A DNA stretch of 32,000 bases from Candidatus Saccharimonadota bacterium (GTDB lineage: Bacteria > Patescibacteriota > Saccharimonadia > Saccharimonadales > Saccharimonadaceae): positions 180,001-212,000 of the forward strand of contig MKSO01000001.1 of the NCBI GenBank assembly GCA_001897305.1, in the 5' to 3' direction. Below the pieces are notes generated by a model that did not search any database, was not told where the DNA came from, and saw only the letters and a list, made by a program, of their open reading frames with translations. How positions within the stretch are numbered: position 1 is the first letter of the stretch; each line of letters starts with the position of its first letter. Below are positions 1,165 to 28,385 of the stretch, piece by piece. The position numbers and the translations under genes are program-made.

Positions 1165-1938
1165 GTGGTAGGAAAAAATCGTAAACAGGGAACAGTATTC
1201 TTAAGCGCTGCTATTGGCGCTTTCTTGGTAGTTTTAGCTGCCCCTGTTGCGTATGCGTACACGGCAACCGAGTATCCTACAACAACCTCTTGGACTGTAG
1301 GCACAGTTGTGGCAGTCAACGGTGATGGCAGCCCTGTTGCTGCTTCAACTCAAGCAGCTAACTATATCGGCGTTGTTGCCAACCCTTCGACTGGCAAGAC
1401 TGTAGAGGTAGCAGGCACTGGGACAGTTTCGGTAGTCGTAACAGATAAGGACGGAGCTGTTGAAAGTGGTACTCGTTTGGGTCTTTCGTCGGTTGCTGGG
1501 GTAGCGAGCGCCTGGACAAACGGGACCGTCATTGGTGTTGCTCAAGAGGCTCCAAAAGAATGGAAACAAGCTACTCTTGACTCGTCGGCATCTATAAAAC
1601 TGGCATCGGTTAGAGTGCAACTACTCAGTGACGGCGCTTCAAGCGGCAGTTCTCCTATCAACCAGTTCTTCGCAGCCCTAGAGAAGACAGCTTCTGGAGT
1701 GGCGGGCAAACCGGTGGATACATGGAGGATTATTACAGCATTACTTATTGGGCTTGGCGGCCTTATTCTTGCTTTTGGACTACTGTTTATTTCAAGCCGA
1801 GAAAGCTTTTTCTCGATGGGTCGTAATCCAATGGCGAGTAAAATCATCATGCGTGGTTTATGGAAAATGGTAGCCTTGTCTGTTGGTATCCTTTGTATCA
1901 CGCTTACTGCGTCGTATTTGATTGTGAGGATTGCGTAG
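1165..1938 (+). CDS. Secreted or membrane-anchored hypothetical protein (257 aa). It has an N-terminal signal-like segment and two C-terminal TM helices. Its ectodomain is related to the C-terminal domain of the downstream giant protein.
   Basis: GTG start preceded by AGGTGA. The hydrophobic N-terminus is FLSAAIGAFLVVLAAPVAYA. The C-terminal hydrophobic stretches are ITALLIGLGGLILAFGLLFI and MVALSVGILCITLTASYLIV. The motif string YIGVVANPS..VEVAGTGTVSVVV..G..ESGTRLGLSSVAGVA....GTVIGVAQEA parallels LMGVVSTNPG..IALTGRVPVKV..GPIAVGDKVTISSVEGVG....GMIVGTAVES in the giant protein. Confidence 0.75.
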   Translation: MVGKNRKQGTVFLSAAIGAFLVVLAAPVAYAYTATEYPTTTSWTVGTVVAVNGDGSPVAASTQAANYIGVVANPSTGKTVEVAGTGTVSVVVTDKDGAVESGTRLGLSSVAGVASAWTNGTVIGVAQEAPKEWKQATLDSSASIKLASVRVQLLSDGASSGSSPINQFFAALEKTASGVAGKPVDTWRIITALLIGLGGLILAFGLLFISSRESFFSMGRNPMASKIIMRGLWKMVALSVGILCITLTASYLIVRIA

Positions 1939-1939
1939 T

Positions 1940-4900
1940 ATGAACCGCAAAGCCCTACTGCCAGTCTTCGTCTCGCTTGGTATTTTTGTTGTTATTTTTG
2001 GGGTTGTGGCGCTGTATCTTTGGAACGCAAGCCGGCAGGATGTAAAATCAACGGCCGACCAATCTGTCACTACAGTGAAGGGGCTTCAAGACCTTCAAGT
2101 TATTGACCAGCCTGTTTCACCAACGAAGCAAGTGATAGGTGGTGATTTAAAGGTAACGGGTAATGTCAGCATTATCGATGGTCTTTCAAGTTCATCACTA
2201 CAGCTTACACCGGTTACTAACCCAGCCGGCCTTCGTACCGGTCAGCTTTACACGAATACCGATAATAACCTGTACTACTACGACGGTAGGGTTTCATCGA
2301 ACATTTCAGGCGGTTTAGCGACTGCTCGAGTAGACATTAACCAACTTCAGCAAGAAACTGCTCAATTTCTGAACCGTCCAGAGGGTGTGCTCACACTACA
2401 GGGTCAGTCGGGTAATGTCGTACTGGCTGGTTCTGATGGAATTGCTATTTCTGGAACAACCATTACAAATAATGGCGTGCTTACTGTACAGGGTCGGGCT
2501 GGTAATGTTCAGTTCGTAAGCGGTAACGGCATCGATGTAACGGGAACAACCATTAATAATACAGGCGTCACAAGCTTGGGTGGTCAGAACGGCACTGTCG
2601 CTTTGGGCACTGGGCTCAGTATCAGCAACGGCACACTAGTGAACACAGGAATTACTCAACTTATCTCGGGTAGTTCCGATTTGATCGTTTCGAATGTAGG
2701 TGGCGGTGCCTACACAATTAGTTATGCCGGTTCCGGGGTGGGTGGTACGGTCGCTTTGGCACCAAATACATCCCAGGAAGATTCTAGTAATAATGCATCA
2801 ATCGCTTTTAACAAAACGGGTCTCGGCAACTTAATTCAAATTTCTACTGGTACTAATGCTTCGAATAAATTCGTCGTCGATCAGTCAGGTGCAATTATTA
2901 ACGGAAGCATTAACTTTAGCCAGGTAACAGGTGTGCCGAGTCTTGTTAATTCTATTGCGGGCCTTACGGGTACCGTAGGAGTTGGTGCTGGACTGGCTGT
3001 AAATGGTGGCCAGCTGGTTGCTACGACGGCTGTGAATAATCTTGTAGGAACTGCGAACCAAGTAAATGTATCGGGGAGCGGTACGCTTACTCTATCGTTG
3101 CCGCAAAGCATCGCGACGACATCTTCGCCGACTTTCGCCGGCTTGACGCTCACGAATGCACTAACTGTAGGGAACGGTGGTACTGGTGCATCGACTGCTG
3201 CGGGGGCTCGTACTAACCTAGGAGCGGCGGCAAGTGGTGTAAATAATGACATTACTTCGCTTACTGGTTTAACCACGGCGTTGTCGGTTGCCCAGGGTGG
3301 TATTGGTACGACGTCTCTTACTCAAAATGGTGTGCTTATTGGCAATGGCTCTGCCGCCGTGTCTACACTTAATGCGGCGAGTGCTAATCAGTGTCTTGTG
3401 TCTGGTGCGGGTGGCGTATTAAGCTTCCAAACCTGTCCGGGTGCAGGCAGCGTCACTAGCGTAAATGGTAAAAATGGTGCAGTGACGATAGCGGGCGTAG
3501 ACCCAACAAGTATTGATTCAACCGGTTCATCAATTGTTATTCGCGATGCCTCGTATACAACTAAGGGCTTAGCTTCATTTAATAGTACAAACTTCAGCGT
3601 ACTAAACGGAAGTGTTACTACTGCGCAAAATATTAATACAGGCGCTACTCCAACCTTTGCTGGCTTAAACCTCACTGCGGCATTAAGCACTGCTAACGGT
3701 GGAACGGGTCGTACGAGCTTTACGGCCAATTCGTTGCTCGTAGGCCAGGGCGGAGCTGCGCTTGGAACGGTTGGAACAACCATTGATGGGCAGTGTTTAG
3801 TGTCAGGAACTGGCGGGGTGCTTGGTTTTGCATCGTGTCCCGGTTCAAATGGCGTAGCTAGTTTGAACGGGCTTACAGGGGCGGTTAGCCTTAGCACAGT
3901 AACTGCTTCAAGCTTGTCGCAGACCGGGAATGTTATTACTGTTCGCGACGCAAGCGACACCATAAAGGGGCTTGCTGCATTTAATAGCAGCAACCTAGTC
4001 GTAACGAACGGGGTTGTAAATACTGCGCAAAATATTAATACGTCGGCTACGCCTACTTTCGCCGGACTTTCACTTGATACTGCGCTTGCGGTTACTAGTG
4101 GTGGTACTGGCCGTAATACGCTAACCGCTAATAGTCTTTTGATAGGAAATGGTACGGGCGCAGTGTCTATGTTAAGTGCGCCAACGGCCGGCTTGTGTCT
4201 TACTTCTGGCACTGGCGGGGTGTTGAGCTTCGTCACTTGTCCGGGTACTGCGGTTGTAAATACGCTTAACGGACAAAGTGGTGATATTACACTTACTGCT
4301 GCAGATCCGTCAAGTATTACTACGACCGGCGCAACTATCTCGATTCGTGACGCTTCGTATACAAATAAGGGCTTGGCTTCATTTAATGGCAGTAACTTCA
4401 GTGTTACAAATGGTGCTGTTAATACCATTCAGGATATCGCAACAACCGCAACGCCGACCTTTGAGGGCTTAACTCTTACCAGCGCTTTGGGTGTGACGAG
4501 TGGCGGTACTGGTGCAACGAATTTTGCGGCTAATAGCCTCCTTATTGGACAGGGGACTGCAGCGGTGAGTACATTAGGTACGTCGACGGCTGGTCAGTGT
4601 CTTATTTCTGGTACGGGTGGGTATCTATCGTTCTCGGCTTGCCCTGGAAGTAACGGCGTTGCCAGCCTTAATGGGCTGCTCGGAGCTTTGACGGTCAAGG
4701 GTGTGAGTGCCTCTAGCGTGCTTTCAACGGGTTCAACTATTACTATCGCTGATGCAACGGACACGGTAAAGGGCCTTGCCGCATTTAATAGCAGTAACCT
4801 AGTCGTAACAAACGGGGTTGTAAATACTGTTCAGGACATTTCAGTAAATGCGACACCAACTTTCGCCAGCCTTACGCTCTCTAGCCCGCTAGCTGTTAGT

Positions 4901-7900
4901 AGTGGCGGTACTGGTGCAAGTAGCTTTGCCGCAAACGCGGTACTTATCGGTAATGGTAGCTCTACGTTTGGTGCAGTTGCTGCTACGGCCGAAAACCAAT
5001 GTCTAATATCTGCAGCCGATGGCAGCTTAAGCTTTGTGACGTGTCCTGGTGCCGCCGGGGTAACCAGCTTGAATGGTCTTCAGGGCAGTCTTACGCTTAA
5101 CGCTGCTGACCCTAACAGTATTGCGAGCAGTGGTACGACCATTACTCTTCGTGATGCTACTAACTCTCGCAAGGGTCTTGCGTCATTCAATGCCGCGAAC
5201 TTCAGTGTTACCAGTGGTGCGGTAAACTTAGTTCAGGATATTGGCTCTGGCGCGACGCCTACTTTTGCAGGCCTAAGCCTAGGAAGCGCCTTGACGGTAG
5301 CAAATGGTGGTACTGGTGCAACCACAGCTGCTGACGCAAGGACAAACCTCGGGGCTGCGTCTAGTGGTGTTAACAACGACATCACCACACTTGGGTCGGT
5401 TACTTCGATTGCCTCTGGGTCTGGTCTAACAATAAATGCCACAAGCGGCACCCTCAGTCTGCAGGGTGCGGCAACGGTGCTTGCTCAAACTAACGGCACA
5501 AACACAACTCGGCTTGATTTTGCAAATCCAACAGCTGACGTAACGTATCGTCTACAAACTGCCGCCGCTGGTACGTATGAAGTATGTACGACCGCGGGTA
5601 ACTGTGTCGGTGTGGGCGGTGGCGTTACGACGACCGGTGGAACAATCGGCAAGCTTTCCCGTTTTGTCAGCGGCACTGCTATTGGCGACTCAATCATTAC
5701 GGATAATGGCTCAACGGTATCGATAGGGGGCGCCCTTAACGTTAATACTATTACGCCAACGGCGGCTGCTATTATTGGTGCGACTACCCAGTCGCTTACT
5801 CTGCAAGGTTCAACGACAAGTATTACAAGTACCGGCGCGGCTTCAACAAATACCCTCACGTTCGCAACTCCATCGGGCACGAACAAGACGATCACTATTC
5901 CAAACGCCAGCGGTACGGTTGCTATTTCAGCAAGTGGTCCATTAAGTCTTGACGCCAACGGTAACCTTTCGTGTGCCAGCTGTCTGACAAGTGGCGGCGG
6001 CGGTGGTGGTGCGACAGGTGTCTCAAGTGTTAATGGTATCACCGGTGCTGTTACCTTGGTGTCTAGTGACGCAAATTCACTGACGACGGCCGGTACTAGC
6101 ATTACTATTAACGATGCGACGGCAACAACTAAGGGTCTCGCTGCTTTTAATAGTAATAACTTGGTTGTTTCAAATGGCGTCGTAAACACCATCCAAGATA
6201 TTGGTACTGGTGCGACACCAACCTTTGCTAATATTAACCTTAGTTCGCCGTTGACAGTTGCGAATGGTGGTACGGGCCGTTCGAACTTGCCAAAGGGTCT
6301 CGTTATAGGCAACGGCACAGGTGCGGTCGATATCCTTGCTCCAACCGGTGCAAGTGAATGTTTGGCATCGGATTCAAGCAGTAACCTTGTGTTCGTAGCC
6401 TGCCCGGGTACGTCGGTTGTTAATTTCCTTAATGGGCTTAACGGTACGGTAACAATCGACACTGTATCGGCAAGTAGTCTTTCGACAAGTGGCAATAACA
6501 TTCGTATTCAAGACGCTACTTCGTCTATTAAGGGCTTGGCATCGTTCAACGCCTCAAACCTGACGGTGACAAATGGCAGCGTTAATACCGTTCAGGACAT
6601 TAGTACATCATCAACCCCATCATTTAACGGCCTTTCACTCGGTACAGCGCTAGGGGTTGCTAGTGGTGGTACGGGTTCAGCTACGGCTGCCGGTGCGCGC
6701 ACAAACCTGGGCGCGGCTGCTCGTGGTGCAAACAGCGACATTACGTCATTATCTGGCCTTACGACAGCTTTGTCGGTAGCCCAGGGTGGTACTGGTCAGT
6801 CTTCACTGACAGCAAACCGAGTGCTACTTGGTAACGGCACCTCTGGTATTGCAGTGAGTAACGCCGCAGGGGTTGGCCAATGTTTGGTAGGGAATGCAAG
6901 TGGTGCACCAAGTTTCCAAGCGTGCCCTGGCTCTGATGGCGTCCGTACCTTTAACAGCCTAAATGGGGATGTCACTCTTGATACTACATCGGCAAATAGC
7001 TTGGTAGTGAGCGGCAATAACATTCGCATTCAAGACGCAACCTCATCTATTAAGGGCTTGGCATCGTTTGACGGCACGAACCTTACTATTGTGAATGGTG
7101 CGGTTAATACGGCACAGAACATCACCACTAGTGCAACGCCAACCTTTGCTGGCTTGAACCTGACCACTGCCTTAGGTGTTGCGAGTGGTGGGACGGGCCG
7201 CTCAACACTTGCGACAAATGGTGTTGTTGTAGGTCAGGGTACAAGTGCCGTTACTACCGTCGGTACAAACACGGCGGGCCAGTGTCTTGTATCTGGCACT
7301 GGCGGGGCTTTGAGCTTTGCAAGCTGCCCTGGCTCTGGTGGTGTGGCAAGCCTCAATGGCTTGAACGGTGCTGTTACCATCGACACGGTGACTCCATCGA
7401 GTCTTTTGGTTAGTGGCAATAACATTCGCATTCAAGACGCAACTTCATCTATTAAAGGCTTGGCATCATTCAACACTGATAGTCTTACGGTTACAAATGG
7501 TAGCGTTTCAACTGTTCAAAGTATTAACACTACCGCAACGCCAACCTTTGCTGGTCTTACTCTGACAAGTCCGCTTGGCGTTGGCAGTGGCGGTACGGGC
7601 CGCTCGACACTTGCAGCGGGAAGCTTGCTTATAGGTAATGGCTCGGGCGCTATTTCTACACTTGGCACATCTGTAGCGGGTAAGTGTCTCGTCTCTGGTG
7701 CTAGTGGAACGCTTTCATTCCTCGACTGTCCAGGAACCGACGTTGTGAGTAGTTTGAACGGTGTGAGTGGCGCAGTTACGGTAACTGCTGTTGATCCAGC
7801 AAGCATCGACACTACAGGTAACACTATTACTGTTAAAGACGCTTCGTATACAACCAAAGGCCTGGCTTCGTTTAATGGTGGTAACTTTGTTGTTAGCAAT

Positions 7901-10900
7901 GGGGCGGTTAATACAATTCAGAACATCGCTACAACGTCGAGCCCAACTTTTGCCGGCCTAACGCTTTCAAGTGCGCTAGGGGTAGCAAATGGCGGTACTG
8001 GGGCTGGAAGTTTTGCAACTAACGGTATTCTCGTTGGACAAGGAACATCCGCTGTAACGACAGTCAGCACTACTACGGCCAACCAGTGTCTTGTTACGGG
8101 AACGGGTGGTGTTCTAACATTTGCAAGTTGTCCTGGTTCGGGCGGCGTCAGTAGCTTTAATGGCCTTACAGGTGCGGTAAATGTTGCGACGACAACCGCA
8201 AGCAGCCTCCTTACAAGTGGCAATACTGTCACTATTCGCGACGCAAGCGATACTATTAAGGGTCTCGCTTCCTTCAATTCAACCAACCTTACCGTCACAA
8301 GTGGCGTCGTAAATACGGTTCAAGATATAAGCACTGCATCTACGCCAACCTTTGCCGGCCTTACCCTAGGTAACGCGCTGAGTGTTGCTAACGGTGGTAC
8401 GGGTCAAACTACCCTCACTGCTAACCGCGTGCTTCTCGGTAATGGTACGTCTGGTGTGGCAGTGAGCAACGCCGCAGGGGCCGGACTTTGTCTTATTGGG
8501 AATGCGACCGGGGCACCAAGCTTCCAATCTTGTCCAATTGGTGGGAATATCTCATCTGGCACCTCTCAGACTGCTGGTGTTGTGGCGATGTTCGATAGTA
8601 CCGCAAACCAAATTACCGACTCAATCATCTCGCAGTCTGGTTCGGTTGTCTCTGTTGGCGGACAACTGAGTGCTACGACACTAAGTGGCAACGGTGCGGC
8701 GATCACTAACCTTAACGCTTCTAATATTGCCACCGGTACTGTTGCAAACGCTCGTCTTAGCGCCAATGTAACACTTCAGGGCAATAGCTTTAACGGTAAC
8801 AGCCAGTTGCTTAAGCTTGATAGCAGCGGTGCAACTACCCAAAACGGCCTTTGTCTTATGAGTACTGGCTCTGGTACGGGTACTGCTTTCCAGGCGTGCC
8901 CAGGTTCAAACGTAGCCGTAGGCGCAAACACTTCGCTGTCTAACCTTTCGAATGTTGCCATTAATGACATGCTTCTTCCGGGCGCGAGCAATTCTATCGA
9001 CATTGGTAGTACCACCTTGGCATTCCGCAACCTTTACTTGGCTGGTGCAGTAAGTGCGGCGGGCGCCATCAACGGCCTCACGCTTACTTCAAACTCGCTA
9101 CAGAGTGCTGGTGCTCTCAACCTTAGTGCGGGTGGAACAAACCAAGCGGTTACAATTGCTGGCAGCGGTAGTGGTGGAGTGACAATTAACCCAGGTACGG
9201 GGAGTATTACGCTCTCGGGCGTAACCTGTAATACCTCTGCTAACGGTGGAAAGCTTACCACTAATGCGTCGGGTATCTTGGGCTGTGCCGATGATATTGG
9301 CGGCGTCTCGGTTGTGGGTACTATTGACTCGCAGACGGCCAGCGCCAACGGTGCGGTTATTAATGGTAATACTATCTATTTGCAGACGGCGAGTTCAACG
9401 GCAACCGGGCTTGTAAGTACGGCTGCCCAAACGTTCGCTGGTAACAAAACATTTGCCGGAGCTACAACACTGCAGGGCGCAACAACAATGAGTGGATCGG
9501 TGACGATTGGCAGTCCATCGATGGGTGTTCTATACACCGATACGAGCGGTACTGTTCAAAAGGCGTATACATCAGGTGCAACGGTAGGTCAGTGCCTAGC
9601 TTATACTGCAACGAATACTCTTGGCTTCCAGAGCTGTGGCGGTGGCGGTGGGGGTGGAAATCCATTCCTTCAAGGCGGTAATGCCTTCAATGCAACAGCA
9701 ACACTCGGTGTGACAGATAACCAGGCGATAAATATTATTCAAAATAATCAAAATCGTATTGCCATGCCAAATGACGGCAACATCATCATAACGCCTATGA
9801 CTAACAAATTCGTTTTCATTAATACAACCGCCTCTGATAGTGATGCTGATTTGATTGTAAATGGTCGCGTTAAGTCATTGACTGGCTTTAAGGTGGGTAA
9901 CGTAAGCGGAATATCTATTGCGCAGTGTAGCGGATACATTCAGAATGCAGTTGTGAGTGGCGGTATTATTACCAATGGTAACTGTTCGAGCGGGGGTTCA
10001 GCGGGTCAGGCTCTTGTACAAGGTGGTAACGCCTTTAATGGGACGCTTACCATGGGAACGACAGACAACTTTGGTGTTAATATCGTAAAACAAGGCACCA
10101 CCATGATCGGTATAAGCCAGGACGGCAACATCGACTTCTCGCCAAGCGTTAATAAGTGGGTCCGTGTCGGCACTACTGATACTGATAGTACGTCACAATT
10201 TATCGTAGGTGGGCGTATCAAGTCGGGCACTGGTTTCAGGGTCGGTAACAATACGGGCATAGATCTTACATGTCAAAATGGTAACCAGACCTTGGGCGCG
10301 GTTCGTATTGCCGGTGGTATTATCTACCAAGCGCAGTGTGCCACCAACAACTCTGACCTTGCCGAGAATTACGCCTCACCACAGCAACTCGCTCCAGCCG
10401 AGATTGTCATGGCTGCTGGTACTTCTGCAACAACAGTGGTTCGCGCCACCGGAGAAGGTGCTCGCGAAAAACTTATGGGCGTTGTTTCGACTAACCCAGG
10501 CCAGACATTAGGTACCGAACAAGTACCAAACGGGTATCCAATTGCCCTAACCGGACGTGTTCCTGTGAAGGTAAACGGCGAGGGTGGCCCTATTGCAGTA
10601 GGTGACAAGGTGACTATCTCGAGTGTTGAAGGTGTCGGTAAGAAAGCTACAACCCCAGGTATGATCGTCGGTACCGCAGTTGAATCATTTGACGGCAACG
10701 GCCAAGGCTCTATTGAGGTCTTTGTAAACCTTATGTACTGGAGCCCTGTGGATGGTAATAACCTGCAGGCTCAGACAGGCACCTTTGGTTCACTAAATGT
10801 ATCTGGTAACACTACTTTGAACACCCTAACAGTTACTGGTGTAGCTACATTCCAGGCAAATATTGTCGTGAACGGACACATTATTACTGGCGGTGGTGCG

Positions 10901-11203
10901 CCAAACTACAGTGTCGGTGCATCGGCCGGCGCGGGTGCCCAGGTTGTCATTGACGGTAACGATACAGCGGGTACTATTAAAGTAACTACTGGTTCAGGTG
11001 CCAATGCAGGCAGCCTTGCGGATCTCGTCTTTAGTCACGCGTATGGTAAGGCACCAAAGGTGCTTATCACCGGCCAAGATGACGCAAGTGTAAACGCTCG
11101 TGTCTACCCATCGGGTAAATCAAGTAGCGGCTTCTCACTCGGTACATCTCAGACGTTAGCACCAAATACCACCTACTCATTTGACTACTTTATTGTTCAA
11201 TAG
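1940..11203 (+). CDS. Giant membrane-anchored surface protein (3,087 aa) with tail-fibre-like repeat architecture; putative adhesin or host-contact fibre
   Basis: An uninterrupted 9.26-kb ORF. ATG at 1940 follows GAGGA at a 9-nt spacing and lies 1 nt after the upstream stop. The N-terminal TM anchor is LLPVFVSLGIFVVIFGVVALYLW. About 11 repeat units of 134 aa each carry a C-x13-C-P-G loop. The motif ANGGTG..TAA.ARTNLGAA.SG.N.DIT occurs three times (nt ~3206, ~5336, ~6696). A G.G..ITNLNASNIATGTV.NARL motif and two QGGNAFN...LG.TDN modules are present. The protein is T/S/G/N/A-rich and low in charge. Confidence 0.9.
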   Translation: MNRKALLPVFVSLGIFVVIFGVVALYLWNASRQDVKSTADQSVTTVKGLQDLQVIDQPVSPTKQVIGGDLKVTGNVSIIDGLSSSSLQLTPVTNPAGLRTGQLYTNTDNNLYYYDGRVSSNISGGLATARVDINQLQQETAQFLNRPEGVLTLQGQSGNVVLAGSDGIAISGTTITNNGVLTVQGRAGNVQFVSGNGIDVTGTTINNTGVTSLGGQNGTVALGTGLSISNGTLVNTGITQLISGSSDLIVSNVGGGAYTISYAGSGVGGTVALAPNTSQEDSSNNASIAFNKTGLGNLIQISTGTNASNKFVVDQSGAIINGSINFSQVTGVPSLVNSIAGLTGTVGVGAGLAVNGGQLVATTAVNNLVGTANQVNVSGSGTLTLSLPQSIATTSSPTFAGLTLTNALTVGNGGTGASTAAGARTNLGAAASGVNNDITSLTGLTTALSVAQGGIGTTSLTQNGVLIGNGSAAVSTLNAASANQCLVSGAGGVLSFQTCPGAGSVTSVNGKNGAVTIAGVDPTSIDSTGSSIVIRDASYTTKGLASFNSTNFSVLNGSVTTAQNINTGATPTFAGLNLTAALSTANGGTGRTSFTANSLLVGQGGAALGTVGTTIDGQCLVSGTGGVLGFASCPGSNGVASLNGLTGAVSLSTVTASSLSQTGNVITVRDASDTIKGLAAFNSSNLVVTNGVVNTAQNINTSATPTFAGLSLDTALAVTSGGTGRNTLTANSLLIGNGTGAVSMLSAPTAGLCLTSGTGGVLSFVTCPGTAVVNTLNGQSGDITLTAADPSSITTTGATISIRDASYTNKGLASFNGSNFSVTNGAVNTIQDIATTATPTFEGLTLTSALGVTSGGTGATNFAANSLLIGQGTAAVSTLGTSTAGQCLISGTGGYLSFSACPGSNGVASLNGLLGALTVKGVSASSVLSTGSTITIADATDTVKGLAAFNSSNLVVTNGVVNTVQDISVNATPTFASLTLSSPLAVSSGGTGASSFAANAVLIGNGSSTFGAVAATAENQCLISAADGSLSFVTCPGAAGVTSLNGLQGSLTLNAADPNSIASSGTTITLRDATNSRKGLASFNAANFSVTSGAVNLVQDIGSGATPTFAGLSLGSALTVANGGTGATTAADARTNLGAASSGVNNDITTLGSVTSIASGSGLTINATSGTLSLQGAATVLAQTNGTNTTRLDFANPTADVTYRLQTAAAGTYEVCTTAGNCVGVGGGVTTTGGTIGKLSRFVSGTAIGDSIITDNGSTVSIGGALNVNTITPTAAAIIGATTQSLTLQGSTTSITSTGAASTNTLTFATPSGTNKTITIPNASGTVAISASGPLSLDANGNLSCASCLTSGGGGGGATGVSSVNGITGAVTLVSSDANSLTTAGTSITINDATATTKGLAAFNSNNLVVSNGVVNTIQDIGTGATPTFANINLSSPLTVANGGTGRSNLPKGLVIGNGTGAVDILAPTGASECLASDSSSNLVFVACPGTSVVNFLNGLNGTVTIDTVSASSLSTSGNNIRIQDATSSIKGLASFNASNLTVTNGSVNTVQDISTSSTPSFNGLSLGTALGVASGGTGSATAAGARTNLGAAARGANSDITSLSGLTTALSVAQGGTGQSSLTANRVLLGNGTSGIAVSNAAGVGQCLVGNASGAPSFQACPGSDGVRTFNSLNGDVTLDTTSANSLVVSGNNIRIQDATSSIKGLASFDGTNLTIVNGAVNTAQNITTSATPTFAGLNLTTALGVASGGTGRSTLATNGVVVGQGTSAVTTVGTNTAGQCLVSGTGGALSFASCPGSGGVASLNGLNGAVTIDTVTPSSLLVSGNNIRIQDATSSIKGLASFNTDSLTVTNGSVSTVQSINTTATPTFAGLTLTSPLGVGSGGTGRSTLAAGSLLIGNGSGAISTLGTSVAGKCLVSGASGTLSFLDCPGTDVVSSLNGVSGAVTVTAVDPASIDTTGNTITVKDASYTTKGLASFNGGNFVVSNGAVNTIQNIATTSSPTFAGLTLSSALGVANGGTGAGSFATNGILVGQGTSAVTTVSTTTANQCLVTGTGGVLTFASCPGSGGVSSFNGLTGAVNVATTTASSLLTSGNTVTIRDASDTIKGLASFNSTNLTVTSGVVNTVQDISTASTPTFAGLTLGNALSVANGGTGQTTLTANRVLLGNGTSGVAVSNAAGAGLCLIGNATGAPSFQSCPIGGNISSGTSQTAGVVAMFDSTANQITDSIISQSGSVVSVGGQLSATTLSGNGAAITNLNASNIATGTVANARLSANVTLQGNSFNGNSQLLKLDSSGATTQNGLCLMSTGSGTGTAFQACPGSNVAVGANTSLSNLSNVAINDMLLPGASNSIDIGSTTLAFRNLYLAGAVSAAGAINGLTLTSNSLQSAGALNLSAGGTNQAVTIAGSGSGGVTINPGTGSITLSGVTCNTSANGGKLTTNASGILGCADDIGGVSVVGTIDSQTASANGAVINGNTIYLQTASSTATGLVSTAAQTFAGNKTFAGATTLQGATTMSGSVTIGSPSMGVLYTDTSGTVQKAYTSGATVGQCLAYTATNTLGFQSCGGGGGGGNPFLQGGNAFNATATLGVTDNQAINIIQNNQNRIAMPNDGNIIITPMTNKFVFINTTASDSDADLIVNGRVKSLTGFKVGNVSGISIAQCSGYIQNAVVSGGIITNGNCSSGGSAGQALVQGGNAFNGTLTMGTTDNFGVNIVKQGTTMIGISQDGNIDFSPSVNKWVRVGTTDTDSTSQFIVGGRIKSGTGFRVGNNTGIDLTCQNGNQTLGAVRIAGGIIYQAQCATNNSDLAENYASPQQLAPAEIVMAAGTSATTVVRATGEGAREKLMGVVSTNPGQTLGTEQVPNGYPIALTGRVPVKVNGEGGPIAVGDKVTISSVEGVGKKATTPGMIVGTAVESFDGNGQGSIEVFVNLMYWSPVDGNNLQAQTGTFGSLNVSGNTTLNTLTVTGVATFQANIVVNGHIITGGGAPNYSVGASAGAGAQVVIDGNDTAGTIKVTTGSGANAGSLADLVFSHAYGKAPKVLITGQDDASVNARVYPSGKSSSGFSLGTSQTLAPNTTYSFDYFIVQ
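3120..5290 (+). repeat. Coding tandem repeat block 1 of the giant gene: 5 units with an exact 402-nt (134-aa) period
   Basis: The first Cys codon of the C-x13-CPG loop recurs at 3392, 3794, 4196, 4598 and 5000, exactly 402 nt apart each time. Units are diverged (not identical) at both amino-acid and DNA level. Block edges are approximate. Confidence 0.9.
6020..8535 (+). repeat. Coding tandem repeat block 2 of the giant gene: about 6 units (one of 522 nt, then a 402-nt period)
   Basis: Cys codons fall at 6359, 6881, 7283, 7685, 8087 and 8489. A ~55-nt stretch (ggcaataacattcg.attcaagacgc...ggcttggcatc) recurs at 6491, 7013 and 7415 with only a few substitutions. Block edges are approximate. 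Confidence 0.9.
9660..10360 (+). repeat. Two tandem ~116-aa modules (QGGNAFN..LG.TDN..I....G.....DGNI......NK.V...T.......F/L IV.GR.KS.TGF.VGN) near the C-terminus of the giant protein
   Basis: caaggcggtaatgcc at 9671 and caaggtggtaacgcc at 10019 are 348 nt apart. The two translated modules align along their whole length. Confidence 0.8.
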
Positions 11204-15727: not shown

Positions 15728-15736
15728 AGTGTAGCA
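15728..15736 (-). promoter_or_regulatory. Extended -10 (TGCTACACT on the minus strand) 6 nt upstream of the ROK ATG; leaderless-type promoter
   Basis: The minus strand reads TGC-TACACT-agaggc-ATG. There is no room for a functional Shine-Dalgarno sequence. Confidence 0.5.
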
Positions 15737-15750
15737 TGAACAATGCAGAT

Positions 15751-15901
15751 TTAGCTCCTAATTTGGTGGCAAGAGGATGGTCTTATATAAGCGACACATT
15801 CCGCAGCCTGAGTTGAGATGGGCGTAGAGACCCCATCGAAACCCAGCGCGAGGACCGTTCGCGTTGTAAGACCATCCTCTTGCCACCAAATTAGGAGTTA
15901 A
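15751..15901. repeat. Long-hairpin element, copy A (shorter, divergent): 31-bp perfect inverted arms around an 81-nt interior
   Basis: The left arm ctcctaatttggtggcaagaggatggtctta (15755-15785) is the exact reverse complement of 15867-15897. Pairing extends 3 bp further after one G/T mismatch. The interior contains TTCCGCAG, ATCGAAACC and GCGAGGAC, which also occur in copies B and C but in a different order. Confidence 0.7.
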
Positions 15902-17668: not shown

Positions 17669-17689
17669 TACCGTTGGTAGTTAGTCGCC

Positions 17690-17714
17690 GGTAGGGAATA
17701 GCGCATTCCCTACC
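17690..17714 (+). other. Perfect 10-bp hairpin between rpsA and infB, with no U-tract
   Basis: ggtagggaat / agcgc / attccctacc. It is followed by aaacac, so it is not a canonical intrinsic terminator. It could be a partial terminator or an RNA processing or stability element. Confidence 0.4.
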
Positions 17715-17750
17715 AAACACTAATTACTAACACCGAAAAGGAGCATCAGC

Positions 17751-20545: not shown

Positions 20546-20711
20546 TGTCGTGCGAATGGATCGCACGACGTACCAGGGCTTATAAAAGCCACAGTATGTC
20601 GCGCGATCACATTTCACACCTTTTTAATGATCAGCGAGGGTATTGCACCTCACGTATGCATAGGATTATAGCACTTATTTGATTTTTTGTCAATAACCAT
20701 AAACAAATACA

Positions 20712-24499: not shown

Positions 24500-24508
24500 A
24501 GTATATCA
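24500..24508 (-). promoter_or_regulatory. Extended -10 (TGATATACT on the minus strand) 7 nt upstream of the def ATG; leaderless-type promoter
   Basis: The minus strand reads TGA-TATACT-atggcca-ATG(def). Confidence 0.5.
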
Positions 24509-24519
24509 GAGGTAGCGGT

Positions 24520-24709
24520 GAGGCGGAAGAGGCGGCCGGAGCTCGAGCATAGCGCTTTGATGAAACCTAGCTATCGAACGGCGACTTCTTGGCGGAGCGA
24601 GGACTGTCTGAGCGCAGCGAGTTCCGCAGATCCCCAAGAAGGAGCCGAGATACAGGTAAGGCTTGAATCAACCGCGCTATGCTCGAGCTCCGGCCGCCTC
24701 TTCCGCCTC
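24520..24709 (+). repeat. Long-hairpin element, copy B: 36-bp perfect inverted arms, 118-nt structured interior and a 34-nt conserved core (core in + orientation)
   Basis: The arm gaggcggaagaggcggccggagctcgagcatagcgc (24520-24555) is the exact reverse complement of 24674-24709. Inner pairings are cttcttgg(24585-92)/ccaagaag(24634-41), cggc(24579-82)/gccg(24644-47) and tatc(24572-75)/gata(24649-52). The core agcgaggactgtctgagcgcagcgagttccgcag (24596-24629) matches the reverse complement of 28267-28300 at 34/34 positions. Confidence 0.85.
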
Positions 24710-24718
24710 TGCTACAAT
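24710..24718 (+). promoter_or_regulatory. Extended -10 (TGCTACAAT) 6 nt upstream of the ATG at 24725; leaderless-type promoter
   Basis: TGC-TACAAT-aggtat-ATG. It begins at the nucleotide immediately after the right arm of element B. Confidence 0.55.
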
Positions 24719-28175: not shown

Positions 28176-28184
28176 AGTATAGCA
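28176..28184 (-). promoter_or_regulatory. Extended -10 (TGCTATACT on the minus strand) 6 nt upstream of the priA ATG; leaderless-type promoter
   Basis: The minus strand reads TGC-TATACT-aaatat-ATG(priA). It is separated from the left arm of element C by 1 nt. Confidence 0.55.
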
Positions 28185-28185
28185 G

Positions 28186-28376
28186 TGAGCGTAAGGAGGC
28201 GGAGCGAGACTTTTTATATGCAGTTACCTCAAGCCTTGAGTGGCTGCGTGTTTTCTTCTTGAGACGCTGCGGAACTCGCTGCGCTCAGACAGTCCTCGCT
28301 TCGTCAGGAAGAAAACGCTTGCCACTCAGGTTTCGATAAAGCATATAAAAAGTCTCGCTCCGCCTCCTTACGCTCA
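28186..28376 (-). repeat. Long-hairpin element, copy C: 36-bp perfect inverted arms, 119-nt structured interior, with the same 34-nt core in the opposite orientation to copy B
   Basis: The arm tgagcgtaaggaggcggagcgagactttttatatgc (28186-28221) is the exact reverse complement of 28341-28376. Inner pairings are gagtggc(28238-44)/gccactc(28321-27), gttttcttc(28250-58)/gaagaaaac(28308-16) and gacg(28263-66)/cgtc(28302-05). The core lies at 28267-28300. The junction motifs TTTATCGAAACCT and AAGGCTTGA are shared with copy B. Confidence 0.85.
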
Positions 28377-28385
28377 TGCTACAAT
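28377..28385 (+). promoter_or_regulatory. Extended -10 (TGCTACAAT) 6 nt upstream of the ATG at 28392; leaderless-type promoter
   Basis: TGC-TACAAT-aaccat-ATG. It begins at the nucleotide immediately after the right arm of element C. Confidence 0.55.

Follow-up and report, generated by a model that had tools for sequence, protein, structure and literature searches.

A widespread family of long bacterial hairpin elements with a conserved apex and freely varying stems

Two hairpin copies and their conserved centre

The 32,000-nt stretch of DNA analysed here (the window; contig MKSO01000001.1, positions 180,001 to 212,000) comes from a Saccharimonadaceae (TM7) bacterium with a genome of about 1 Mb. 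It carries two long intergenic hairpins, copy B and copy C, that share an identical 34-nt core at their tips. We lean towards the view that they are resident copies of a non-autonomous palindromic, or foldback, DNA element belonging to a widespread family. The family is best filed with the known class of palindromic non-autonomous bacterial DNA elements, such as the REP/REPIN sequences and the Rickettsia palindromic elements (RPE), which it resembles inside-out. It reverses the usual logic of bacterial repeats in that the tip is conserved and the stems are free. It is set apart by this conserved apex with free but concerted stems, by a core shared across phyla, by in-frame residence in genes and by a centre that flips.

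The core, AGCGAGGACTGTCTGAGCGCAGCGAGTTCCGCAG, occurs exactly twice in the window, at 24596-24629 on the plus strand (B) and at 28267-28300 on the minus strand (C), and no match was expected by chance in 100 shuffles. The arms of each hairpin are 36 nt long and 100% complementary (24520-24555 and 24674-24709 in B, listed as I1; 28186-28221 and 28341-28376 in C, listed as I2), with gaps of 118 nt in B and 119 nt in C between them. Both copies fold into rods with z-scores of -14.7 and -16.5. An earlier note on this DNA, made from the sequence alone, had described the two-copy core, the Watson-Crick-perfect arms and a set of conserved junction motifs (TTTGATGAAACCT / TTTATCGAAACCT and AAGGCTTGA). 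An exact search bore out the core, 34/34 identical on opposite strands, and all 36 arm positions pair in both copies; the motifs were found in place, with identities between B and C of 12/13 on the 5' side and 12/16 on the 3' side.

In B, the left arm leads into the 5' junction TTTGATGAAACCT (24556-24568), which forms a helix with a tandem GA/GA internal loop together with the 3' junction AAGGCTTGAATCAACC (24658-24673). Inside it lie a segmented, copy-specific inner helix (5' strand 24569-24595, 3' strand 24630-24657), no more similar to that of C than shuffles are, and the apex, which runs P1 / GAGGACTGTCTGAG / GC-GCA-GC mini-hairpin / CGAGTTCCGC-A / P1. By fold and comparison with B, copy C has the same parts on the minus strand, with the 5' arm at 28341-28376, the 5' junction TTTATCGAAACCT at 28328-28340, the apex, the 3' junction AAGGCTTGAGGTAACT at 28222-28237 and the 3' arm at 28186-28221. 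A covariance model of the apex scored 54.8 bits in B (E = 7.6e-14) and 55.4 bits in C (E = 5.4e-14).

The arms of B and C are identical at 24 of 36 positions, a score that was equalled by 12 of 2000 shuffles. Because all 36 positions are nevertheless paired in both copies, at least 12 differences have been compensated. The arms are thus diverged homologues held paired, and not unrelated sequences. Of the claim that the centre is conserved while the termini differ, the first half stands and the second has to be softened accordingly.

Spread and structure of the core

A scan for the exact pattern GAGGACTGTCTGA-N3-30-GAGTTCCGC in one genome per species returned at least 120 loci. Among the matches listed, the carriers include Beta-, Gamma- and Deltaproteobacteria, Nitrospira, Saccharibacteria, Paceibacterota, Uhrbacteria, Nomurabacteria, Coriobacteriia, Lachnospiraceae, Barnesiella (Bacteroidota), Spirochaetes and others, isolate genomes among them, and are not Rickettsiales. 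One archaeal match lies in a coding sequence and looks like an expected chance match. A metagenome scan for the window-type junction together with the core gave five matches, one of them from this species. The earlier note had considered that the core might prove unique to its two loci, or that further copies might fail to conserve it. Instead it recurs in many phyla, and the additional copies keep the core while their flanks covary. A nucleic-acid module conserved at the nucleotide level from Proteobacteria to bacteria of the candidate phyla radiation is at hand that has no entry in Rfam 15.

Across the 127 distinct instances compared, one arrangement recurs: bases +2 to +5 to the right of the core are paired with the four that precede it on the left, base +1 on the right is invariably A, and the variable middle of the core region is a hairpin. 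In a 73-sequence alignment, the two helices so defined, P1 and P2, had 107 double-change cells compared to 32 in shuffles; none of 500 shuffles reached 107, and the signal collapsed in slid-register controls. From this covariation, the core is an asymmetric internal loop (5'-GAGGACTGTCTGAG / 5'-CGAGTTCCGC-A) that does not vary, set between two helices whose sequence is free. The usual tip is a C-GNA-G triloop of the DNA mini-hairpin type. Among the matches listed, the apical loops were GAA (29), GCA (21), GTA (13) and AAA (5), and no GNRA tetraloop was seen.

Around this invariant apex a common plan is found across phyla: the outer stem is long, near-perfect and particular to each copy, the junction is characteristic of the lineage, and the inner helix varies. 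The version seen in B and C occurs in Saccharibacteria, Paceibacterota, Uhrbacteria, Spirochaetes, Coriobacteriia, Lachnospiraceae, Pseudohongiella and a deltaproteobacterium. The outer stems reach about 65 bp in Coriobacteriia. The arm-to-arm distance is constant at 118-119 nt in four Saccharimonadaceae copies, and in this lineage tandem G.A pairs are also present at the junction. The proteobacterial apex hairpin belongs to a longer repeat, which has another conserved hairpin in its tail and often comes as inverted pairs separated by about 250 nt.

Two variations on the plan were noticed. Inverted pairs of apex hairpins, 100-250 nt apart around a variable centre, occur in Proteobacteria and some Saccharibacteria (L088, L010, L108, L001 and L120, the last at 5852-5896 minus and 6015-6067 plus). 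They resemble the terminal repeats of a larger composite element, and the partner often has CTGTTTGAG instead of CTGTCTGAG. In several phyla a second conserved module, CTTyTTTGGyTACTTTCTTTTG-(GCGAAGC or similar)-CAAAAGAAAGTA, stands 10-80 nt downstream of the hairpin (L010 ~4230-4300, L088 ~650-720, L095 ~2870-2950, L024 ~2090-2130, L092 ~2095-2140, L001 ~365-420). It is absent from the window copies, and alone it matches Variovorax and Ralstonia replicons, where it is unannotated.

Long perfect inverted repeats are a known class of artefact in multiple displacement amplification and nanopore data, and an origin from chimeric fold-back reads, or a chance palindrome, had to be considered. This explanation is refuted. 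Copies B and C, as well as a third hairpin of the window, copy A, recur without a base change in ENA and JGI assemblies of this organism that were made independently from other samples, so that the hairpins are no assembly artefact. In addition, isolate genomes contain the family, there is covariation between the core and the helices that flank it, and shuffles predict no matches at all.

Co-evolving arms and flipped centres

The recJ genes of related genomes hold orthologous copies in which the behaviour of the arms can be followed. Between loci L045 and L130 the arms differ at about 7 of 27 positions and are perfectly paired in each. At the same site in L131 the arms are homologous to these two and the whole 118-nt centre is reverse-complemented, and the copies in L132 and L133 have decayed. 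We infer arm-to-arm templating, by recombination or template switching, as the simplest mechanism, one that also inverts the centre. Such templating with inversion of the centre is general for inverted repeats and quasipalindromes.

In the quasipalindrome template-switch model of Ripley and Lovett, one replication event can turn an imperfect inverted repeat into a perfect one, so that the multiple apparently compensatory changes between B and C, or between L045 and L130, could arise from a single event. Hairpins have also been described to arise de novo by template switching (PMC10710096). However, this is a general mutational mechanism and defines no element family, and it leaves the conserved apex unexplained. 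A resemblance in the manner of working, not in membership, is offered by the flip/flop palindromes of parvoviruses and the inversions between inverted repeats in the 2-micron plasmid, plastids and the Y chromosome. There, too, an asymmetric centre occurs in both orientations within perfect arms, which are identical since one templates the other. In contrast to parvovirus termini, the present elements are chromosomal and internal, have no known Rep-type nickase and have arms of only 27-36 bp.

Gain, loss and residence in genes

The presence of the element varies between relatives in which gene order is kept and the Def protein is 80-87% identical. At the site between priA and the phosphoribosyltransferase gene, which holds copy C in the window, L127 is empty, with 8 nt between its two -10 boxes. 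L128 holds a complete element, whose 29-bp arms are unrelated and whose core is a one-base variant, its core strand being opposite relative to the window. L126 (2904-2976) lacks the core and shows a perfect palindrome of 31 bp closed by an 11-nt loop, probably the leftover of a centre deletion, and L130 and L132 retain short relics (GACAGTCCT; CGAAAC). The def-side site is empty in L126 and L128, and the copy-A site is empty in L130. Remnants that look centre-deleted were also seen in recJ (L133; P0151, P0122, P0127 and P0128).

Some copies reside in coding sequences. In recJ of L045 an in-frame element adds 51 aa. In many Saccharimonadaceae RecJ proteins (611-616 aa) the minus strand of the core is read as ..SAELA..QSS.., while RecJ P0148 carries ..EDCLSEASSA.., the core on the plus strand, and some other RecJ look centre-deleted. 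In a family 2 glycosyltransferase (GT2) of Paceibacterota, the segment FExDxRVRVFHKENGGK is uninterrupted in 90 of 120 homologues, and about 10 homologues have inserts at that point with ..GED(C/Y/L)LSEA(S/N)SA... Since the uninterrupted segment is the base state, both arms at the GT2 site are inserted DNA and not a duplicated target. Around 40 RecJ clusters with a low-complexity insert of about 50 aa and around 10 GT2 clusters with a 17-44-aa insert were counted, all hairpin-encoded (P0121-P0240, P0241-P0360). Thus, copies enter intergenic spacers and, in-frame, coding regions, persist for a long time and are lost by deletion of the centre or by decay.

We considered whether the arms are an inverted duplication of the target flank. 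This is ruled out at GT2 by the base state and at the priA site by the 8-nt empty spacer; at recJ the outcome of the same comparison was ambiguous. Arms as spacer-like copies were rejected as well, because a short-word BLAST of six arms against the window and the fetched loci matched only the arms themselves. At the recJ, GT2 and priA sites no sign of a direct target duplication was seen. For annotation, these hairpins are a source of spurious ORFs and of in-frame insertions by which families such as RecJ and GT2 are inflated. They also provide a natural series for the study of how long perfect palindromes are tolerated, homogenised, flipped and lost, including in genes of the essential type and in genomes of about 1 Mb.

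DNA or RNA

The earlier note had left open whether the hairpins are a structured non-coding RNA (ncRNA), a DNA cruciform or protein-docking site, or a foldback mobile element. The evidence favours a foldback or palindromic element that acts at the level of DNA and is less favourable to an ncRNA. As an RNA, the element would have a kink-turn-like apex in the order C-stem GGAC/GUUC, 5-nt bulge, tandem G.A and helix P2, and the long stem beneath it would serve in processing, either by binding a protein or as a substrate of RNase III. We think this quite unlikely. It is true that P1 and P2 covary, that the core strand is asymmetric with conserved G.U and tandem G.A pairs, that the junction helix covaries with a U.G pair in copy C and that the folding energies are very low. 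The order of C-stem, bulge, tandem sheared G.A and second helix, with C-G beside the bulge, also appears similar to a kink-turn, although the bulge has 5 nt instead of 3 and the evidence favours DNA. We know of no L7Ae-type partner in most of the carrier phyla.

Against this stand the pairs themselves, which are nearly pure Watson-Crick. G.U accounts for about 7 of about 500 paired cells in P1 and P2 and for none in the 36-bp arms of B and C. In the enclosing stems of the matches listed, G.U-type mismatches amount to 7.7% on one strand and 7.1% on the other. Together with apical GNA triloops in place of GNRA or UNCG loops, the scarcity of G.U and the strand-equal mismatches favour pairing in DNA. 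d(GNA) loops closed by C-G, as in d(GCGNAGC) mini-hairpins, are exceptionally stable as DNA and far less so as RNA, and such mini-hairpins are found at single-strand priming sites (PMC3201870, PMC13037366).

The relation to transcription argues in the same direction. For B and C alike, the extended -10 boxes on both sides point outward, with the copy upstream of them and outside the predicted transcripts, and no promoter-like site was found facing into or inside them. Orientation is random with respect to the neighbouring genes, the core in tandem contexts running with the flanking genes in 18 cases and against them in 18 among the matches listed. In recJ the core is mostly antisense, and a flipped copy is tolerated. 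Finally, no Rfam family was matched.

The boxes abut the hairpins closely. That of the FBP_C gene, TGCTACAAT, is at 24710-24718 (plus) next to copy B; those of priA, TGCTATACT, at 28176-28184 (minus), and of the phosphoribosyltransferase gene, again TGCTACAAT, at 28377-28385 (plus), are on either side of copy C. As part of the element the boxes were rejected, since the empty allele of L127 keeps them; they belong to the genes. Further TGCTAYAMT boxes were seen at 15728-15736 and 20665-20673, and TGATATACT at 24500-24508 on the minus strand. The window has 5 TGCTAYAMT boxes compared to 1.05 expected, 4 of the 5 beside the three hairpins, and their position about 6-7 nt before ATG suggests leaderless mRNAs.

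Mobile element or host site

If B and C are copies of a palindromic DNA element, the working part would be the apex of the hairpin, with its asymmetric loop (5'-GAGGACTGTCTGAG / 5'-CGAGTTCCGC-A) and its C-GNA-G mini-hairpin cap. We suggest that the apex may fold within one DNA strand, in transiently single-stranded DNA or in an extruded cruciform, and that the folded apex may serve as a cis-site for a trans-acting protein encoded elsewhere than nearby. The arms would carry no sequence information and would be kept Watson-Crick by arm-to-arm templating, which would also flip the asymmetric centre.

Several observations weigh against this proposal. At orthologous sites the apex evolves several-fold slower than the arms (0-1 compared to about 7 changes in about 27 positions), which a purely selfish, immobile copy should not show, and a constraint that acts at the host level or is self-maintaining is implied. 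The apex is asymmetric between strands, the core strand being more stable in 101 of the 120 elements among the matches listed, and it has a conserved G.U/G.T pair and tandem G.A pairs, as an RNA would. The core is on the C-rich strand (negative GC skew) at 69 of 107 loci (p = 0.0035, related genomes being counted separately), the opposite of what a lagging-strand-template model for single-stranded DNA like that of IS608 predicts. Neither the window nor the 148 ORFs closest to the listed loci yielded a mobilising enzyme, and no two copies at different loci were seen to have identical arms, so that there is no sign of recent transposition. In addition, since the scan required the exact core, its conservation across phyla is partly imposed by the search.

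Some of this would be expected if the hairpin were a cis-acting DNA site of the host, such as a single-strand priming or primosome-type site, a cruciform that absorbs supercoils between divergent promoters or a dock for a conserved protein that binds DNA structures, kept by purifying selection and not by mobility. We regard this as unlikely. The apex changes far more slowly than the arms and survives inversion, and the constraint thus appears to be on the nucleic acid and not on an encoded peptide. All three hairpins of the window lie between divergent genes beside -10 boxes, and the elements persist in streamlined genomes of about 1 Mb. GNA mini-hairpins are found at the G4 and ssiA priming sites and in the single-stranded promoters of N4, and they bind SSB poorly (PMC13037366).

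However, close relatives have empty, deleted or decayed alleles at the same sites, and insertion into coding sequences fits opportunistic spread better. The divergent context is not general either: among the matches listed, the elements lie mostly between convergent or tandem genes, with 22 convergent compared to 6 divergent cases. Gene context was taken from ORFs of at least 200 aa, because crude ORF calling was too noisy in the high-GC loci. Nor were additional copies present in the 20 kb flanking the window. The slow apex at orthologous sites implies a protein partner or a function, which it should be possible to discover.

The search for linked machinery was negative throughout. A domain check of the window ORFs agreed with the earlier note that no reverse transcriptase, transposase or RAYT-like gene is present in the window. 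The 148 ORFs nearest to the element at the 120 listed loci were screened against Pfam, and no transposase, reverse transcriptase, integrase or HUH domain turned up. All-against-all clustering of the ORFs gave only common housekeeping families and no conserved neighbour gene; apparently conserved ORFs that overlap the element have no Pfam domain and were discarded as spurious. A phage vector was rejected, as the core is rare among viral contigs (4 of 2.9 million). Phage sequences gave no BLAST match, and plasmids gave one only to the unannotated downstream tail module. In L001 the core is beside tail genes near the end of the contig.

Copy A and a possible circular intermediate

Copy A (15751-15901, plus strand, listed as I3) is the third long hairpin of the window, with 35-bp arms (97% complementary) and an 81-nt centre. 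The centre holds the modules TTCCGCAG (15799-15806), ATCGAAACC (15835-15843) and GCGAGGAC (15848-15855), of which ATCGAAACC is identical to the junction of copy C, in an order that is circularly permuted relative to B and C. When copy A is folded, the apex stem GGA/UCC forms, a loop closes off the junction helix, which includes the GA/GA loop, and the long arms stand in place of the apical helix. As a linear member of the family copy A was rejected, because the apex covariance model gives no match and only the permuted reading fits. Copy A is probably a diverged, permuted relative of B and C. The permutation could reflect a circular or tandem-dimer intermediate; as a single example it is a lead, and none of the 140 other fetched loci has a like arrangement.

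Such an intermediate would be expected if the element were an integrated small circular replicon or satellite of rod-like shape, made of single-stranded DNA or derived from RNA, that opens at either terminal loop. The permuted modules of copy A, with the long arms replacing the apical helix and a loop capping the junction helix, are in line with it, and so are the rod-like architecture as a whole, the absence of a linked enzyme and a core that is near-identical across distant phyla. On the other side, copy A is the only permuted copy seen, with none among the 140 fetched loci, a tandem dimer followed by a deletion could also permute the modules, orthologous copies have been inherited vertically over long times, viral contigs hardly ever contain the core, and a free circle was never seen. 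We therefore hold a replicon of this kind to be very improbable.

A related possibility, nearly as speculative, is that the palindromic element itself passes through a rod-shaped hairpin, transiently a closed or circular single strand, that is opened at either terminal loop and joined to the chromosome. Propagation and the regeneration of the arms would then occur by hairpin-templated synthesis through a conserved host enzyme, and no transposase of its own would be needed. We give this little credence, although it would jointly explain the permuted copy A, the flips of the centre, the perfect genome-proximal arms and the lack of a linked gene in spite of an apex that is near-identical across phyla.

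Comparison with known systems

The designation of the hairpins as an unrecognised family is supported by the searches that we made. At the gathering threshold, Rfam 15 matched nothing in the window and only unrelated families at 16 related loci (tRNA, lysM-TM7 and TwoAYGGAY); at E<=10, Rfam gave only generic miRNA-precursor hairpin models, far under their thresholds. Literature searches by core sequence strings returned unrelated primer matches only, and keyword searches found analogues but no description of this hairpin family.

Among the analogues are the REP/REPIN sequences. They are dispersed, non-coding, non-autonomous palindromes that are thought to act as hairpins of single-stranded DNA, they often occur as inverted pairs, as in the proteobacterial loci here, and they lie mostly between convergent or tandem genes. 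Enterobacterial REPs, the substrates of the HUH transposase RAYT, have the same AAGCGnAGCGC type of apex (PMC2817692). REPs are occasionally found inside genes, and reportedly favour those for replication and repair (PMC3733652), a pattern that the recJ copies of the present family fit. However, REPs are 20-40 nt long and conserve the stem sequence and a GTAG/CGTC tag in each species, whereas here the elements are about 120-260 nt long with the apex alone conserved and the stems free. REPs are species-specific, whereas the present core is common to several phyla; REPs have RAYT, and no such gene turned up either in the window or in the 148 ORFs closest to this family at the listed loci. They reach more than 100 copies per genome, whereas here 3 copies are present in 52 kb (the window and the 20 kb flanking it), all inside 13 kb, and the copy number appears to be low. 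Identification as REP/REPIN by conserved stem and tag fails, since the stems of B, C and A differ. The GTAGC strings beside the arms are not a REP tag, because they are the reverse of the TGCTAC -10 boxes of the genes and the occupied site of L128 lacks them.

RPEs are similar in that they insert in-frame in genes, as was seen here in recJ and GT2. They are restricted to Rickettsiales and conserved over their full length, whereas the present family spans many phyla and conserves the apex and junction only, and it is not known to share sequence similarity with them. To our knowledge, the mechanism of RPEs has not been established, and no flipping of the centre has been reported in them. RPE-1 is mentioned in PMC3733652.

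MITEs share the small size, the non-autonomous, inverted-repeat architecture and the polymorphism of insertion and absence between relatives. However, they have conserved terminal inverted repeats and target-site duplications, and the present termini vary around a conserved centre. The family was rejected as a MITE because the termini diverge and no direct duplication flanks the recJ, GT2 or priA-site copies, which upholds the earlier note in calling it the reverse of one. Nor had that note recognised the core as an attC site or a REP-type repeat, and we agree, as the defining features of both are missing: besides the REP stem and tag, an integron attC fails because the conserved part is apical and not basal, with no integrase and no cassette array. 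A retron (msr/msd) was dismissed for want of a reverse transcriptase domain in the window or neighbouring ORFs, and an inverton because no invertase is nearby, the inverted repeats are copy-specific and no promoter-like site is inside the element. Like an inverton, the centre of the element does flip over evolutionary time.

Genes and other features of the window

All three hairpins of the window are intergenic, each between divergently oriented housekeeping genes. The spacers that hold them are those between def and the FBP_C-domain gene, between priA and the phosphoribosyltransferase gene, and between a ROK-family gene and an LPXTG-anchor gene; copy B adjoins the FBP_C gene and copy C lies in the priA spacer.

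Elsewhere in the window, a 3090-aa ORF (1931-11203) has no Pfam domain on record and is called at 3087 aa in another assembly. At L120, a Saccharibacteria locus, an lysM-TM7 RNA (RF03005, 67.7 bits) at 4523-4629 is unrelated to the element and confirms the taxonomic neighbourhood. The spacer between the genes for S1 and IF2 contains an imperfect palindrome (17673-17731) that is rich in GTTAGTAG / CTACCAAAC. Its position is kept in two relatives (L127 11919-11992; L128 11848-11919), and it is unrelated to the hairpin family.

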